Assembly: GCA_963819655.1 (NCBI GenBank)
Contig: CAWFXA010000002.1
Coordinates: 896,001-960,000, forward strand
DNA: 64,000 nucleotides
Direction of reading: 5' to 3'
DNA from: an uncultured Chloroflexia bacterium
Lineage (GTDB): Bacteria > Chloroflexota > Limnocylindria > Limnocylindrales > CSP1-4
In this document: positions 43,620-58,320 of the stretch, one piece after another
How positions within the stretch are numbered: position 1 is the first letter of the stretch
Layout of the letters: every line of letters starts with the position of its first letter
Position numbers and translations under genes: made by a program
Notes under the pieces: generated by a model
What the model saw: the letters and a program-made list of their open reading frames with translations, nothing else
Told to the model about the DNA's origin: nothing
The model's database searches: none

Positions 43620-44456
43620 TCAGGGGCTGGCGGACCACCGGAACGCCATCGACGCCGACAGGGCGCGACCCGGCTCGGCCTTGGGCGGCGCTGATCCCTC
43701 GGCGTCGGCGAGGTTGATGGCATCGGGCGGGGCGGTCTGCGGCTCGACGCAGATGCCCTCTGCGCGCTCGTCGAACACGACCCAGATCTCGGCGGTCGAC
43801 GTCATCTCGAGCTCGAGGACGCCCGGCCAGCGCAGGCGCGGAGGGGCGCGCACACCGGTGAAGGCGTCGTCCCACGGGCGTGGGCCGGGGCGCGATCGCG
43901 CCCCTGTCGGCAGCCCGTCGGCACCCCGGACGTACATCGATGACGCGTCGAAGTCGAGCTCGACGGCCGCGTCGCCGACCCGGCGCCGGAACCACGGATG
44001 CCAGCCGAGCCAGGCGGGCATCGCGTCGTCCGCCTCGAGGGTCAGCGTCGCGACGAGGCCACCCGGCTGCAGCGAGATCTCATGGGTGACCCGGCCGGCG
44101 AACGGCCAGCCGGGACCGAGATCGACCGCCAGCGTCGCCCTGTCCGGGCCGTGTGACAGCACGTGCCACGGGCGGTCGAACACCGTCCCGTGGATCGCGT
44201 GGGGCGGCAGGTTGCGCGTCAGCTGATGGACGCGGCCGGCGAACGTGAAGCTGCCATCGCGGATCCGGCCCGCGAACGGCACCATCGGGTAGCAACCCCA
44301 CCAGATCGGCCCGGCGCCTTCCGTGACCAGTATCTCGTGGCCGGCCACCTTTAACGAGGCGAAGCGCGCTCCGGCGCCGGCGTCGATCGTCAGCGTGTCT
44401 GCGCCGGAGCGCAGGACCAGCGGGGCGTCGCCCACGGCCGATGGCGGCGGCGTCAC
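43620..44456 (-). CDS. Aldose 1-epimerase family protein
   Basis: PFAGRI, HAIHG, GWHPWF, CVEP; GTGA overlap with the upstream gene. Confidence 0.88.
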   Translation of the reverse strand: MTPPPSAVGDAPLVLRSGADTLTIDAGAGARFASLKVAGHEILVTEGAGPIWWGCYPMVPFAGRIRDGSFTFAGRVHQLTRNLPPHAIHGTVFDRPWHVLSHGPDRATLAVDLGPGWPFAGRVTHEISLQPGGLVATLTLEADDAMPAWLGWHPWFRRRVGDAAVELDFDASSMYVRGADGLPTGARSRPGPRPWDDAFTGVRAPPRLRWPGVLELEMTSTAEIWVVFDERAEGICVEPQTAPPDAINLADAEGSAPPKAEPGRALSASMAFRWSASP

Positions 44457-45838
44457 GCGGTCAGCGTCATGACCCGGTCGGGCCGCAGCAGGAACGGCGG
44501 GAGATAGGCCGGGATGTTGGAGAACGGCAGCACGTCCGGGTGCAGCTCGATGCCCAGGGCGTCGGCCATGAACCGCCGTCGCGCCCCGATCCGGGCCCAC
44601 GCTTCCGGATAACCGCTCGCGAATGCGGCGCGGAGCGACGGGTCGGCGAGGGCGATACCGTCCTCGATGTTCGAGGTGAAATACGGCGACCCAGTCGCTG
44701 GGATGATGTCCACCTGGAACGCCATGCCCGAGCGCAGCTCGATCGACGAGCCCCGGCGGATCGGCGAGTTCACCCATTCGTCGAGCCCGATCTGGTGGCC
44801 CGGGTTGAGGAAGATGCCGAAGAACGGATCGCCGAGGTGGCGGTCGATGATCGCGTGCAGTGCCCCGCCGGTCTGGCCGATGTGCAGCGCGCGATACCAC
44901 TCGGCGACAGCGGTGAAGTACGGGCCGACCAGCCGCTCGACGTAGTCGCCGATCGCCTCGGGCAGGTCGCTCGCGTCCTCGACGACGAAGCCCGCGCGGC
45001 AGGTGAGCGCGCCCCAGATCCCGAAGGCGACGGTGAACGGGTCCCCGCGCTCGATCGGCCGGTCGCCCGGGCTGAGCAGCCCGAACGCGGCGCGCGGTCC
45101 CGCGCTGAGCATCAGATGGCACGACAACGGAGAGCCATCCCAACCGAGCAACGCGACCGCGTCGCGTTCGCGCATGCCCGGGCGCAAACCGGTCAGCACG
45201 GAACGGACCCCGCTCGATGTCGTGCACGCGGCGGCCTCCATCGCCGCCAGCTGCTCGACCTCGTTGATGACCCGCAGGCCGTCGCTCGCGTCGATCATCA
45301 GGTCGACCGCGTTCTCGACCGTGCCGCGAGGCCCCGTCAGCGAGCGGAGCTCGTCGGCGAAGACGGACGGCACGTCGAGCATCGAGGTGTCCGTGTACGG
45401 TTTCCAGCCGACGACGCCGACACGCGCACCGTCGGTGACACCTTCGCCCGCGAGGATGTCCGACAGGGGCCGCGAGCGGTCCCGCGGCTGACCGGGCAGG
45501 CTCAGGTCCTGGTACAGCTCGCGACGCATCGGGAGGGGCGCCGCGCCTGCCATCCCGAAGCACTCGTTGCCGACCAGGATCGCGGGCTCGGTGGCGTCGC
45601 CGACCACGAGGATCGCCTCCTCGAACCGCGGATCGAACCCGGTCAGATACGCCAGGTTCGCGCTGTGCTCGCGGTCCGCGTACACGACGATGCGGTCGTA
45701 GCCGCGCTGTTCCATCCGCTCGCGCAGCCGCGCCATGCGCTGGCCGTAGACGGACGCCGGGACCTCGGGCGTGATCGACGAACGGCCGAAATCCGGCAGC
45801 GCGACCTCGGCGAGACGGGCGTGGGGTGCGGTCGTCAT
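44453..45838 (-). CDS. M24 (aminopeptidase P / creatinase) fold protein with an atypical metal site
   Basis: YLTGFDPRFEE N domain; GHQIGLDE, GMAFQVD, NIED. Confidence 0.8.
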   Translation of the reverse strand: MTTAPHARLAEVALPDFGRSSITPEVPASVYGQRMARLRERMEQRGYDRIVVYADREHSANLAYLTGFDPRFEEAILVVGDATEPAILVGNECFGMAGAAPLPMRRELYQDLSLPGQPRDRSRPLSDILAGEGVTDGARVGVVGWKPYTDTSMLDVPSVFADELRSLTGPRGTVENAVDLMIDASDGLRVINEVEQLAAMEAAACTTSSGVRSVLTGLRPGMRERDAVALLGWDGSPLSCHLMLSAGPRAAFGLLSPGDRPIERGDPFTVAFGIWGALTCRAGFVVEDASDLPEAIGDYVERLVGPYFTAVAEWYRALHIGQTGGALHAIIDRHLGDPFFGIFLNPGHQIGLDEWVNSPIRRGSSIELRSGMAFQVDIIPATGSPYFTSNIEDGIALADPSLRAAFASGYPEAWARIGARRRFMADALGIELHPDVLPFSNIPAYLPPFLLRPDRVMTLTA

Positions 45839-45852
45839 GGGGCCACTATCGC

Positions 45853-56875: not shown

Positions 56876-58240
56876 TCAGCGCCGTGGGCCGGTCGTCACC
56901 CGCGACGCGTCTGCCGACCAGACGGACTGGTTGACCAGGTTCTCGAGAAGCTCCTGGTGCCCGGACTGTGGGCTCGGGGAGATCGCGCCTGACGCCACCT
57001 TGGATTCGAGCGATTCCAGCGACTCCGCGCCATCGAGGATCGCCCGGCCGATCGGTCCGTCCCAGCCGGCATACCGCTCGGCCTTGCGTTCGGCCAACTC
57101 ACCACGCTCGATGAGGTCGGCCGCGACGAGCAGCGCGCGGGCCAGCGTGTCGAGGCCGCCGATGTGCGCATGGAACAGGTCGGTTCGGTGCGTACTCTGC
57201 CGACGCAGCTTCGCATCGAAGTTGAAGCCGCCAGGGTCGATGCCGCCGTGCTGCAGGATCTCGTAGAGCGGCAGTGCCAGATCCTCGACCGAGTTCGGGA
57301 ACTGGTCGGTATCCCAGCCGTTCTGCGGATCGCCCCGGTTCGCATCGATGCTGCCGAGGCTGCCGTTGGCGACCGCGAACGCGACCTCGTGATGGAAGCT
57401 GTGCCCCGCGAGCGTCGCGTGGTTGGCCTCGATGTTGACGCGGTACTCGCCCTCGAGGCCGTGCCGGACGAGGAAGCCGTGGACCGTGGCGACGTCGTAG
57501 TCGTACTGGTGCTTGGTCGGCTCCATCGGCTTGGGTTCGATCAGCAGCTGCCCGTCGAATCCGATGCGATGCTTGTGCTCGGCCACGAGGGACAGGAAGC
57601 GGGCCAGCTGCTCGCCCTCGCGCCGCAGGTCGGTATTGAGCAGGGTGTCGTAGCCCTCCCGGCCGCCCCACAGGACGTAGTTCTGGCCGCCCAGCCGGTG
57701 GGTGACTTCGAGCATGTGCTTGACCTGGGCGGCCGCATAGGCGAACACCAGCGGGTCCGGGTTGGTCGCGGCCCCGGCCTGGTAGCGCGGATGGGTGAAC
57801 AGGTTTGCCGTCCCCCACAGCAATCGCACTCCGGTCCGGTCCTGGTAGCCCGCCGCGTCGTCCACGAGCGCATCGAGGTTCGCGCGGAACTCCGCGAAGG
57901 TGTCGCCCTCCGGCGCGACATCCCGATCGTGGAAGCAGTAGTAGGGGATGTCGATCTTCGAGAAGAACTCGAAGGCAACGGCCATCTTGGTCCGGGCGTC
58001 GGCCATCGGATCCCCGCTGCCCGCCAGCCAGGGCCGGTCCAGCGTCCCGATGCCGAACATGTCGAACCCAGGCCAGGCGAACGAATGCCAGAAGCAGACG
58101 CCGGGTCGGAGGTGCTCCTCCATCCGCTTTCCGAGCACGACCCGGTCCTTGTCGTAGACCTTGAAGGCGAGCGGGCTCGTCGAGTCGAGACCCTCGAACC
58201 GGATCGGCTCGGTGACCTCCGTGAAGAACGCGTCGCCCAC
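56876..58240 (-). CDS. xylA: Xylose isomerase (class II)
   Basis: [46 protein letters not shown] before GTG. Confidence 0.97.
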
Positions 58241-58296
58241 CGCCGGATCCTCCTCGAAAACCCTCAGTCCACCCGCGCCCGCAGCGTAGCACCGCG

Positions 58297-58320
58297 ATTT
58301 GTAGGAGCGAAGCACAAACC
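58297..58320. promoter_or_regulatory. Putative XylR operator upstream of xylA
   Basis: ATTTGTAGGAGCGAAGCACAAACC (TTTGT-N11-ACAAA), overlapping the -35 region of a TGnTACGCT promoter. Confidence 0.75.

Follow-up and report, generated by a model that had tools for sequence, protein, structure and literature searches.

A haloperoxidase-fold lipoprotein and a CRTAC1-like propeller in a predicted xylose regulon of a Chloroflexota bacterium

We analysed a stretch of 64,000 nucleotides from an uncultured Chloroflexia bacterium (contig CAWFXA010000002.1, positions 896,001 to 960,000; hereafter the window), in which a xylose locus adjoins the genes of two exported proteins: a lipoprotein with the fold of vanadium haloperoxidases (haloperoxidase-like below) and a membrane-anchored propeller resembling CRTAC1 (ASPIC below, after its UnbV_ASPIC domain). 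The G+C content of the window is about 70% and the host genome comprises 3,487,778 bases (3.49 Mb; 91% complete). Real genes were chosen by third-position G+C and named with Pfam and NCBIfam, and their starts were refined from the codons (Table 1). Both databases confirmed the gene list of the original prediction: the xyl locus, the haloperoxidase-family gene and an operon of ASPIC, M24-like and aldose epimerase-like genes. Within this operon the GTG start of the epimerase-like gene, as read from the codons, overlaps the M24 stop by 4 nt. A gap of 140 bp separates ASPIC from the haloperoxidase-like gene, which converges on the Gfo gene with a 28-bp overlap. For the ROK protein no XylR-specific NCBIfam model matched, and Mlc and NagC models did so below threshold only.

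Table 1. Features of the locus, with positions in the window
Feature	Position	Strand	Basis and remarks
Aldose 1-epimerase-like	43620..44456	-	Pfam Aldose_epim 8.7e-18; last gene of ASPIC operon
M24/creatinase-like gene	44453..45838	-	Pfam Peptidase_M24 25.3 bits (cut-off 23), Creatinase_N 23.3 (cut-off 22)
CRTAC1-like propeller, FG-GAP + UnbV_ASPIC, membrane-anchored	45853..47544	-	Pfam; AF2 model; Foldseek
Third, weaker XylR-type operator copy (predicted)	47591..47614	none	motif scan, position weight matrix (PWM), 4-genome alignment
Predicted promoter of haloperoxidase-like gene, TTGACC-17 nt-CATCCT	47618..47646	+	by eye and conservation
Lipoprotein with vanadium-haloperoxidase fold (DUF6851 + VCPO_2nd)	47685..49553	+	Pfam, AF2 model, Foldseek
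Gfo/Idh/MocA oxidoreductase, divergent from xylR	49526..50536	-	Pfam; best NCBIfam D-xylose 1-dehydrogenase Gfo6 139.9 bits (cut-off 350)
XylR-type operator in Gfo/xylR gap (predicted), abuts xylR start codon	50598..50621	none	PWM 38.0 bits
ROK-family regulator, named XylR by context	50624..51859	+	Pfam ROK 4.3e-54, 184.5 bits
xylF-type sugar-binding protein	51969..53096	+	Peripla_BP_4 1.5e-56; start placed after GGAGGAG
xylH-type permease	53186..54508	+	BPD_transp_2 1e-33
xylG-type ATPase	54508..55389	+	ABC_tran 3.6e-29; start from codons
Xylulokinase xylB	55386..56870	-	FGGY_N + FGGY_C
Class II xylose isomerase xylA	56876..58240	-	TIGR02630 651 bits (cut-off 533)
Palindromic XylR-type operator (predicted), 57 nt upstream of xylA	58297..58320	none	PWM 31.2 bits; scores on opposite strand too

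What ties these genes together is, in the first place, a short inverted repeat. The pattern ATTNGNNNNNNNGNANNACAAACC, with one mismatch allowed, matches the window at 47591, 50598 and 58297 only, a number of matches that none of 100 shuffles reached, and exact matches in the whole genome are the same three sites. The original prediction had spoken of one 24-bp motif at three places; the motif is real and unique in the genome, but its copies agree at 13 of 24 positions (ATT.G.......G.A..ACAAACC) and are not a single 24-mer, and the xylR copy starts at 50598 instead of at 50589, where it had been put. A looser regular expression run over 102 related loci (1,705,871 bases) gave 62 matches, both orientations of palindromes being counted, and all 62 adjoin xylR, xylA, xylF or Gfo, or sit in the gap between ASPIC and the haloperoxidase-like gene, with none elsewhere. 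The xylA copies are clear palindromes (ATTTGTG-N9-CACAAAT) conserved in many loci, the copy before xylR, directly adjoining the start codon in all members of the family, keeps its place in other Chloroflexota loci as well, and a palindrome of the same type lies between xylA and xylR in three Actinomycetota loci (L078, L083 and L138; L and G numbers are our labels for loci and genomes). Because the motif occurs in these 102 loci only beside xyl genes or in the ASPIC/haloperoxidase-like gap, it is very probably the operator of a ROK-type XylR. The locus has the make-up of such a regulon, with a ROK regulator beside xylose genes and a shared inverted repeat before xylA and xylR. The ROK-type XylR regulons of Firmicutes, as described by Gu et al. 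(2010, PMC2873477), have their inverted repeats, about 25 bp long, in front of xylA/xylB, of xylFGH and of xylR, and also take in genes for access to xylosides. By analogy, the ROK protein of the window would bind the motif and be released from it by xylose.

A synteny search, of the kind proposed with the original prediction, finds the haloperoxidase-like and ASPIC genes linked to xyl or sugar-transporter genes in two phyla, Chloroflexota and Actinomycetota. ASPIC adjoins the haloperoxidase-like gene in eight of the nine same-genus loci fetched, and xyl genes adjoin as well in seven; one contig ends before the expected xyl genes (L028), and a short one, carrying a 44% relative, has neither ASPIC nor xyl genes (L029). 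Gfo, haloperoxidase-like, ASPIC and M24 genes follow each other on one strand in G010, G008, G019 and G018, as a unit divergent from xylR in the first three (the G018 contig stops before xylR), and in G016 and L090 it is the haloperoxidase-like gene that is directly divergent from xylR, across the operator. Among same-genus loci the gene is turned round in the window and G021 only. An epimerase-like gene lies downstream of M24 in several related loci too. Over a sample of 401 genomes of the phylum we obtained 22 matches at E 1e-20 or better; in other genera and families xylFHG is adjacent in 12 of the 13 loci of closer matches (the exception, L066, stands at 42% identity), and relatives at about 30% identity have xyl or ASPIC neighbours in none of seven loci. 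In the sister family a search of 16 genomes, of about 1.1 Mb each, turned up no haloperoxidase-like gene.

The 80 best species-level loci from named records span Chloroflexota, Actinomycetota (Ilumatobacteraceae, Acidimicrobiia, Gaiellaceae, Thermoleophilia), Myxococcota, PVC phyla and others, Methylococcus capsulatus included, and counts over them are lower bounds because many contigs are short. In 45 loci ASPIC adjoins the haloperoxidase-like gene or is fused to it, 26 have xylFHG at an identity of at least 50%, and 12 have another sugar ABC transporter of the same type within 6 kb; xylA or xylB occurs in 24, xylR in 22 and M24, following ASPIC, in 20, with 27 loci showing no ASPIC, transporter, xyl or M24 feature. 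A second layout in Actinomycetota is a one-strand operon of binding protein, ATPase, permease, ASPIC and haloperoxidase-like genes. Membership of both the haloperoxidase-fold gene and the ASPIC operon in the xylose regulon is well supported, and we consider it likely that this membership and the pairing of the two proteins, discussed below, hold jointly.

These loci hold some further details. An extra short-chain dehydrogenase (SDR) gene lies between Gfo and xylR, on the Gfo strand, in many relatives (for example at L055:12030-12800, likewise in L023, L059, L064, L101 and L104), lengthening the accessory operon; the window does without it. One in-frame TGA interrupts each of three xylA matches (G021:C3:47962-49296, G011:C7:21715-23046 and G010:C6:108949-110292), and in G022 the match to the haloperoxidase-like gene is split into seven pieces that lie in different frames; assembly errors or broken genes may account for this. 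In two genomes of another family the xyl/haloperoxidase-like cluster has, less than 10 kb away, the 5' end of a 16S rRNA gene (L057:5739 and L061:17430), recognised by its universal primer-site sequence. In the window a GGDEF diguanylate cyclase gene (42341-43606) stands directly left of the epimerase gene, a position kept in close relatives, and the sole RNA gene found is a tRNA-Pro(TGG) at 34075-34150. Rhizosphere metatranscriptome data (two runs of one study; 5-6% of sampled words) contained short contigs, 90-99% alike, that spanned all 30 bins of the locus, 47559-47862 included; because they come from relatives, the library may hold DNA, and there is no strand, level or xylose contrast, we did not use them as evidence of transcription or habitat.

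The haloperoxidase-like protein begins with a sequence, MKRL...LLGGC, that by eye fits a lipoprotein signal, and its Cys is kept in most of 33 aligned rows. Pfam recognises DUF6851 (52.6 bits) and VCPO_2nd (38.3 bits), both with a cut-off of 27. The 17 best Foldseek matches of the AF2 model (pLDDT 91.8) are all vanadium haloperoxidases or NapH3: XhnO11, NapH1 and NapH3 at E 1.8e-23 to 8.8e-22 with a target-normalised TM of 0.73-0.81, and next the Zobellia iodoperoxidase (about 0.7) and the Curvularia chloroperoxidase (about 0.5). Model, Foldseek and Pfam agree on the two four-helix bundles of the vanadium-haloperoxidase superfamily, and sequence and fold together place the protein in this structural family. 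Vanadate is bound in such enzymes by a Lys, an Arg, a Ser-Gly-His, a second Arg and a covalent His (K353, R360, S402, G403, H404, R490 and H496 in the Curvularia chloroperoxidase). The residues of the oxyanion site in our protein (K409, R416, P417, S519, G520, H521, R583 and H589) are invariant or at least 90% conserved among the 33 sequences, and appear in HMMER alignments to 9l8x and 8cxl as K409-x6-R416-P417, S519-G520-H521 and R583-x5-H589. The family is large: 4706 cluster representatives match at E 1e-3 or better, 910 of them at 1e-30 or better, and many are 1200-1500 residues long. N-terminal extensions of haloperoxidase-like reading frames in Myxococcota and others were ruled out as ASPIC (hhalign probability 0.6%) and gave only sub-threshold hints of a Rax2 propeller in Pfam; some may be over-called starts in high-GC DNA.

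The ASPIC protein, single-copy in the host genome, has the architecture of CRTAC1/ASPIC proteins, with FG-GAP_3 (69.5 bits) and UnbV_ASPIC (47.4 bits) both over their cut-offs and an AF2 model (pLDDT 88.9) made up of an N-terminal helix (12-35), a propeller and a C-terminal beta domain. Its many invariant Asp fit calcium loops. Murine CRTAC1 (9etn) is the best Foldseek match (E 9.5e-23, TM 0.66), and the further ones are generic propellers (LGI1, integrins, aldos-2-ulose dehydratase, galactose oxidase); no enzyme relationship emerged from the structural comparison. The link between the two proteins comes from fusions. In a Pfam survey of 26 long representatives of the haloperoxidase-like family, picked by us, 15 combine FG-GAP, UnbV_ASPIC and DUF6851/VCPO_2nd in a single chain, with the propeller leading in 13 of them and coming last in two, and one further chain has FG-GAP only; three more fusions of ASPIC with a haloperoxidase-like domain are found in L107, L120 and L152. 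Because they are so often fused into one chain, the two exported proteins probably work together. A complex prediction from enzyme residues 46-622 and propeller residues 50-462, the C-terminal domain being omitted for size, lends weak support: it scored 0.38 (runs 0.38, 0.51 and 0.01) against 0.00 for the best of three controls, with a contact agreement of at least 79% between runs and a partner pLDDT of at least 90. In calibration, 116 of 157 solved complexes passed this mark, as did two of 215 mismatched pairs; of those that passed with 0.60 or less, only 18 were among the 157 solved complexes, and both mismatches were in this range.

That the nearest structural neighbours of ASPIC, CRTAC1 and then the integrin and LGI1 propellers, are all binding proteins would also suit a pair without catalysis, a calcium-dependent module for adhesion or sensing that holds the cell to a plant polymer or binds an anion, the conserved site being a ligand pocket; and long members of the haloperoxidase-like family do carry Ig, PKD, dockerin, F5/8-C and LamG domains, as well as Por_Secre_tail. 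Yet the full catalytic set, with acid-base His and Lys, is at least 90% conserved in relatives down to 41% identity, which is hard to explain for a mere pocket, and we regard such a module as very improbable.

The third product of the operon, the M24-like protein, is probably cytoplasmic, because no signal peptide was seen in its sequence. As to its function, the PDB search gave one weak match, the dipeptidase 1wn1 at 1.6e-3; among the five metal ligands of the M24 pita-bread fold, two Asp positions are apparently replaced and the His is kept, in an alignment too weak to rely on; the Atlas offered unnamed creatinase/M24-like clusters only, and NCBIfam nothing.

The best explanation as a whole, which we put forward tentatively, takes the entire stretch from the epimerase gene to the xylA operator as one xylose regulon under a ROK-type XylR. 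The repressor would bind an imperfect palindrome close to ATTTGTG-N9-CACAAAC at three places, namely before xylA-xylB, in the gap between Gfo and xylR-xylFHG, where it would regulate itself, and in the one that separates the haloperoxidase-like gene from the ASPIC-M24-epimerase operon; xylose would release it, as in Firmicutes. In relatives the accessory genes most commonly form one operon, (SDR)-Gfo-haloperoxidase-like-ASPIC-M24-(epimerase), divergent from xylR; this form may be the ancestral one, to judge from its being the majority arrangement, and in the lineage of the window the haloperoxidase-like gene alone would have been turned round, the new gap gaining its own promoter and a copy of the operator. 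The lipoprotein and the propeller would both sit on the outward side of the membrane and act as a unit on material that accompanies or yields xylose, by a vanadate-dependent peroxide chemistry of haloperoxidase type at the Lys/Arg/Ser-Gly-His/Arg/His site, after which the ABC transporter and the cytoplasmic enzymes would take over. Pfam searches found no GH10 or GH11 in the host genome (91% complete), GH43 below cut-off only and a single GH3, next to a full locus for xylose uptake and catabolism. The host either uses free xylose made by others or gets xylose by an unrecognised route, and the scarcity of xylanases is compatible with a role of the accessory operon in access to xylose, without showing such a role.

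Several observations weigh against this explanation, and the first group of them concerns the regulation and distribution of the haloperoxidase-like gene. The 47591 copy of the operator is the weakest of the three, with a degenerate left half. When the genome was ranked with a PWM derived from other genomes (48 distinct sites, all ASPIC/haloperoxidase-gap sites left out), it came fourth among loci with 13.9 bits, behind the xylR and xylA sites and also behind an unrelated site, C2:289268 (L164:3769; 16.2 bits). This last lies in a 61-65% GC stretch whose reading frames have no Pfam hits, near a GT2 gene, which may be a foreign island; we set the site aside as a regulon member, taking it as chance or unknown. 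An alignment of the window's gap with those of L075, L022 and L106, whose haloperoxidase-like proteins share 97, 84 and 81% identity with that of the window, shows a conserved island of operator, TTGACC, 17 nt and CATCCT between diverged flanks. The extra operator copy was seen in these closest relatives only: of the eight Chloroflexota loci with the turned-round arrangement four have it, and the regular expression found none in the gaps of L076, L077, L079 and L092. Its place is also unusual for a repressor of the haloperoxidase-like promoter, since it lies upstream of the predicted -35, which starts 4 nt past it. A strict scan of 43400-58900 for sigma-70 promoters and terminators returned no promoter and did not recover TTGACC/CATCCT. 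Finally, the gene is dispensable: 11 of the 24 other genomes of the genus yielded it, against 19 of 24 for xylA, many of these genomes being incomplete. Gfo, ASPIC and M24 are directly adjacent in five genomes that do without it (G020, G017, G003, G007 and G015), and a sixth, G024, whose xylA is 96-97% identical to that of the window, has ASPIC and M24 still in the xyl locus and 2.8 kb of unrelated DNA, with a Meth_synt_2-like reading frame, in the gene's place.

Since six same-genus genomes keep ASPIC and M24 without the haloperoxidase-like gene, the more constant part of the accessory operon is ASPIC-M24, with the haloperoxidase-like gene as an optional member. One may go further and suppose that the accessory unit truly under XylR is ASPIC-M24-epimerase (with Gfo) alone, and that the haloperoxidase-like gene travels along as a variable passenger that has a promoter of its own; the 47591 site would then serve the ASPIC operon or be a decaying remnant. 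The site is 47 nt from the ASPIC start, a distance like the 57 nt at xylA, and just upstream of the haloperoxidase-like -35, because of which it fits control of the ASPIC operon no less well than that of the haloperoxidase-like gene; moreover, the boxes TTGACC-17-CATCCT are kept in two of the four gaps that lack the operator (L076 and L092). However, in the commoner arrangement the gene is probably co-transcribed with its neighbours Gfo and ASPIC, which flank it within the operon; G016 and L090 have it facing xylR across the operator; and its fusions with ASPIC argue for a common function. We doubt that it is a passenger. As for the Actinomycetota gaps, those of L078, L081 and L083 have no XylR-type operator and have in common a short GATTGAACCA element, which may be a promoter box or the site of another regulator; a possible GAACCA/TGGTTC inverted repeat lies in the L081 gap.

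The other points that count against the explanation preferred here concern the chemistry. The cluster encodes no H2O2-producing enzyme, and the motifs of the site, K-x6-RP, PSGH and SR-x5-H-x3-D in PAP2 acid phosphatases, are common to vanadium haloperoxidases and these phosphatases. D593 is present and conserved as well, so that all three PAP2 motifs are complete; because the motifs are common to both enzyme classes, the residue set cannot separate haloperoxidase from phosphatase, and sequence and fold give the family and not the reaction in the cell. The lipoprotein could accordingly be an extracellular phosphoesterase that removes phosphate from sugar phosphates or phosphorylated glycans, the ABC transporter importing the freed sugar, xylose inducing as a product signal and the propeller binding or presenting the substrate. 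The one-strand operons of Actinomycetota, with their sugar ABC transporter, fit an enzyme that makes a transported substrate; the PAP2 model of Pfam stays barely below its cut-off (25.7 bits against 27.2); and PDB entry 3bb0 is, by its title, a phosphate intermediate trapped in apo-chloroperoxidase. The model, on the other hand, is near the two-bundle vanadium enzymes and far from the PAP2 phosphatases PhoC, KpAP and the E. blattae enzyme (E 0.02-0.15, query-normalised TM 0.14-0.22; best E 0.02 against 1.8e-23), whose single-bundle fold it does not share, no dedicated two-bundle phosphatase is among the Foldseek matches, and the locus in the window has no phosphate-uptake or Pho genes and a regulator that would respond to sugar. 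On balance we hold a phosphoesterase to be somewhat unlikely.

Neighbours in the 32 scanned loci without xyl genes point both ways between haloperoxidase and phosphatase. Five have phosphate-related neighbours, which speaks for a phosphatase: PhoD (L141), PhoU_div and PHO4 (L123), Porin_O_P (L137) and Metallophos (L143, L135). Four have neighbours related to peroxide or halide: a CLC channel (L107), a GMC oxidoreductase (L139), AhpC/redoxin (L147) and, two genes off, a lysyl oxidase (L114). Sulfatases occur in L145 and L147. The clearest carbohydrate context, in a third phylum, is that of a Pontiella metagenome-assembled genome (MAG; L152:4195-14975), where a fused ASPIC-haloperoxidase-like protein of 1250 aa sits in a xylan gene set, flanked by GH115 and, at its other end, by an esterase, DUF3237 and GH10. 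In a Thermodesulfobacteriota MAG (L107:3294-9124) a fused reading frame of 1449 aa is followed on the same strand by genes of a CLC-type chloride channel and a HAD hydrolase.

For the chemistry we settle on a vanadate-dependent peroxide/halide reaction of haloperoxidase type, which we hold to be somewhat less likely than not; phosphoester hydrolysis comes next, and another reaction, or no catalysis, is about as probable as the latter. The original prediction went further, to a halogenating module induced by xylose: the haloperoxidase-fold gene and the ASPIC operon do stand in a xylose locus with a copy of the operator, whereas the halogenating part is left unsupported by motifs shared with PAP2 and by a cluster with no source of H2O2. 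A halogenating or oxidative attack on lignocellulose triggered by xylose is a speculation that we think improbable. It can be drawn as a surface machine, derepressed by xylose, in which the calcium propeller holds xylan or a lignin-carbohydrate or supplies peroxide, and the haloperoxidase-fold lipoprotein carries out peroxide or hypohalite chemistry there; of this version, too, we are doubtful. Were it true, bacteria without a GH10 or GH11 xylanase would have a non-hydrolytic accessory route to hemicellulose sugars, by a two-protein unit in wide use, frequently as one fused polypeptide.

Taken singly, XylR regulons, vanadium haloperoxidases and CRTAC1-like proteins are all known; it is their combination that we did not find described. 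The original prediction knew of no description of such a bacterial regulon, and in the literature that we reached on ASPIC/UnbV with haloperoxidases, DUF6851, bacterial CRTAC1 and sequence networks of vanadium haloperoxidases (VHPOs), subscription journals and supplements lying outside its coverage, neither the pairing nor the regulon is described, nor was an assigned role found for the haloperoxidase-like family or for the numerous bacterial CRTAC1/ASPIC proteins. The locus would give both of these large families a first functional context, and the tie to xylose or sugar uptake in two phyla, with a xylanase neighbourhood in a third, a concrete inducer and class of substrate. If the enzyme is a true haloperoxidase, bacteria of soil and rhizosphere would couple the use of hemicellulose to reactive halogen or peroxide chemistry, with a bearing on the formation of organohalogens in soil and on the opening of lignocellulose; if it is a phosphatase, the scavenging of carbon and of phosphorus would be linked. 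Either outcome would name two large families that lack a function.

Several known systems share parts of this design. The vanadium chloroperoxidase of Curvularia inaequalis (PDB 1vnc and others), for which a role in attack on plant cell walls has been proposed, is likewise a secreted two-bundle vanadium enzyme with the same motif set; it matches less closely in structure (TM about 0.5, rmsd about 11), is fungal, and has no propeller partner and no known control by a sugar repressor. Class A non-specific acid phosphatases of the PAP2 kind (PhoC, PhoN, the E. blattae enzyme) share the three motifs and are also exported, to free nutrients from phosphoesters, but they are single-bundle proteins of about 230 residues, at a Foldseek E of 0.02 or worse. 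Closest in structure are the NapH1/XhnO11-type and NapH3 enzymes (PDB 3w35, 3w36, 9l8x, 8cxl), which have the same fold of two helical bundles and in which Lys-x6-Arg-Pro and Arg-x5-His align. They are 18-19% identical to the window protein, which is about 150 residues longer and keeps the His of Ser-Gly-His where the aligned 9l8x and NapH3 chains have other residues; and it is a lipoprotein in a sugar regulon, whereas the NapH1/XhnO11-type enzymes belong to natural-product pathways. The VHPOs that brominate alkyl quinolones resemble it in being bacterial, in having secretion signals and in having targets outside the cell, and occur in several phyla, Chloroflexota included, in variable genomic contexts; their subfamily, in contrast, is NapH1-like and defined by likeness to one enzyme, and the accessible part of that study mentions no link to sugar or to a propeller (PMC11312541).

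On the side of regulation, the XylR regulons of Firmicutes have, in the accessible part of their description (PMC2873477), the same ROK repressor, inverted-repeat operators and autoregulatory site; here the operator sequence is different, and the members include two that the accessible part does not list for Firmicutes, the exported protein with the haloperoxidase fold and the propeller resembling CRTAC1. CRTAC1 itself, as seen in the murine protein (9etn), has the same FG-GAP propeller with a C-terminal UnbV_ASPIC domain and conserved Asp-rich loops. At 17% identity to it, the bacterial protein is set apart by being membrane-anchored, by being paired with, or fused to, a haloperoxidase-fold enzyme, and by its place in a sugar operon.

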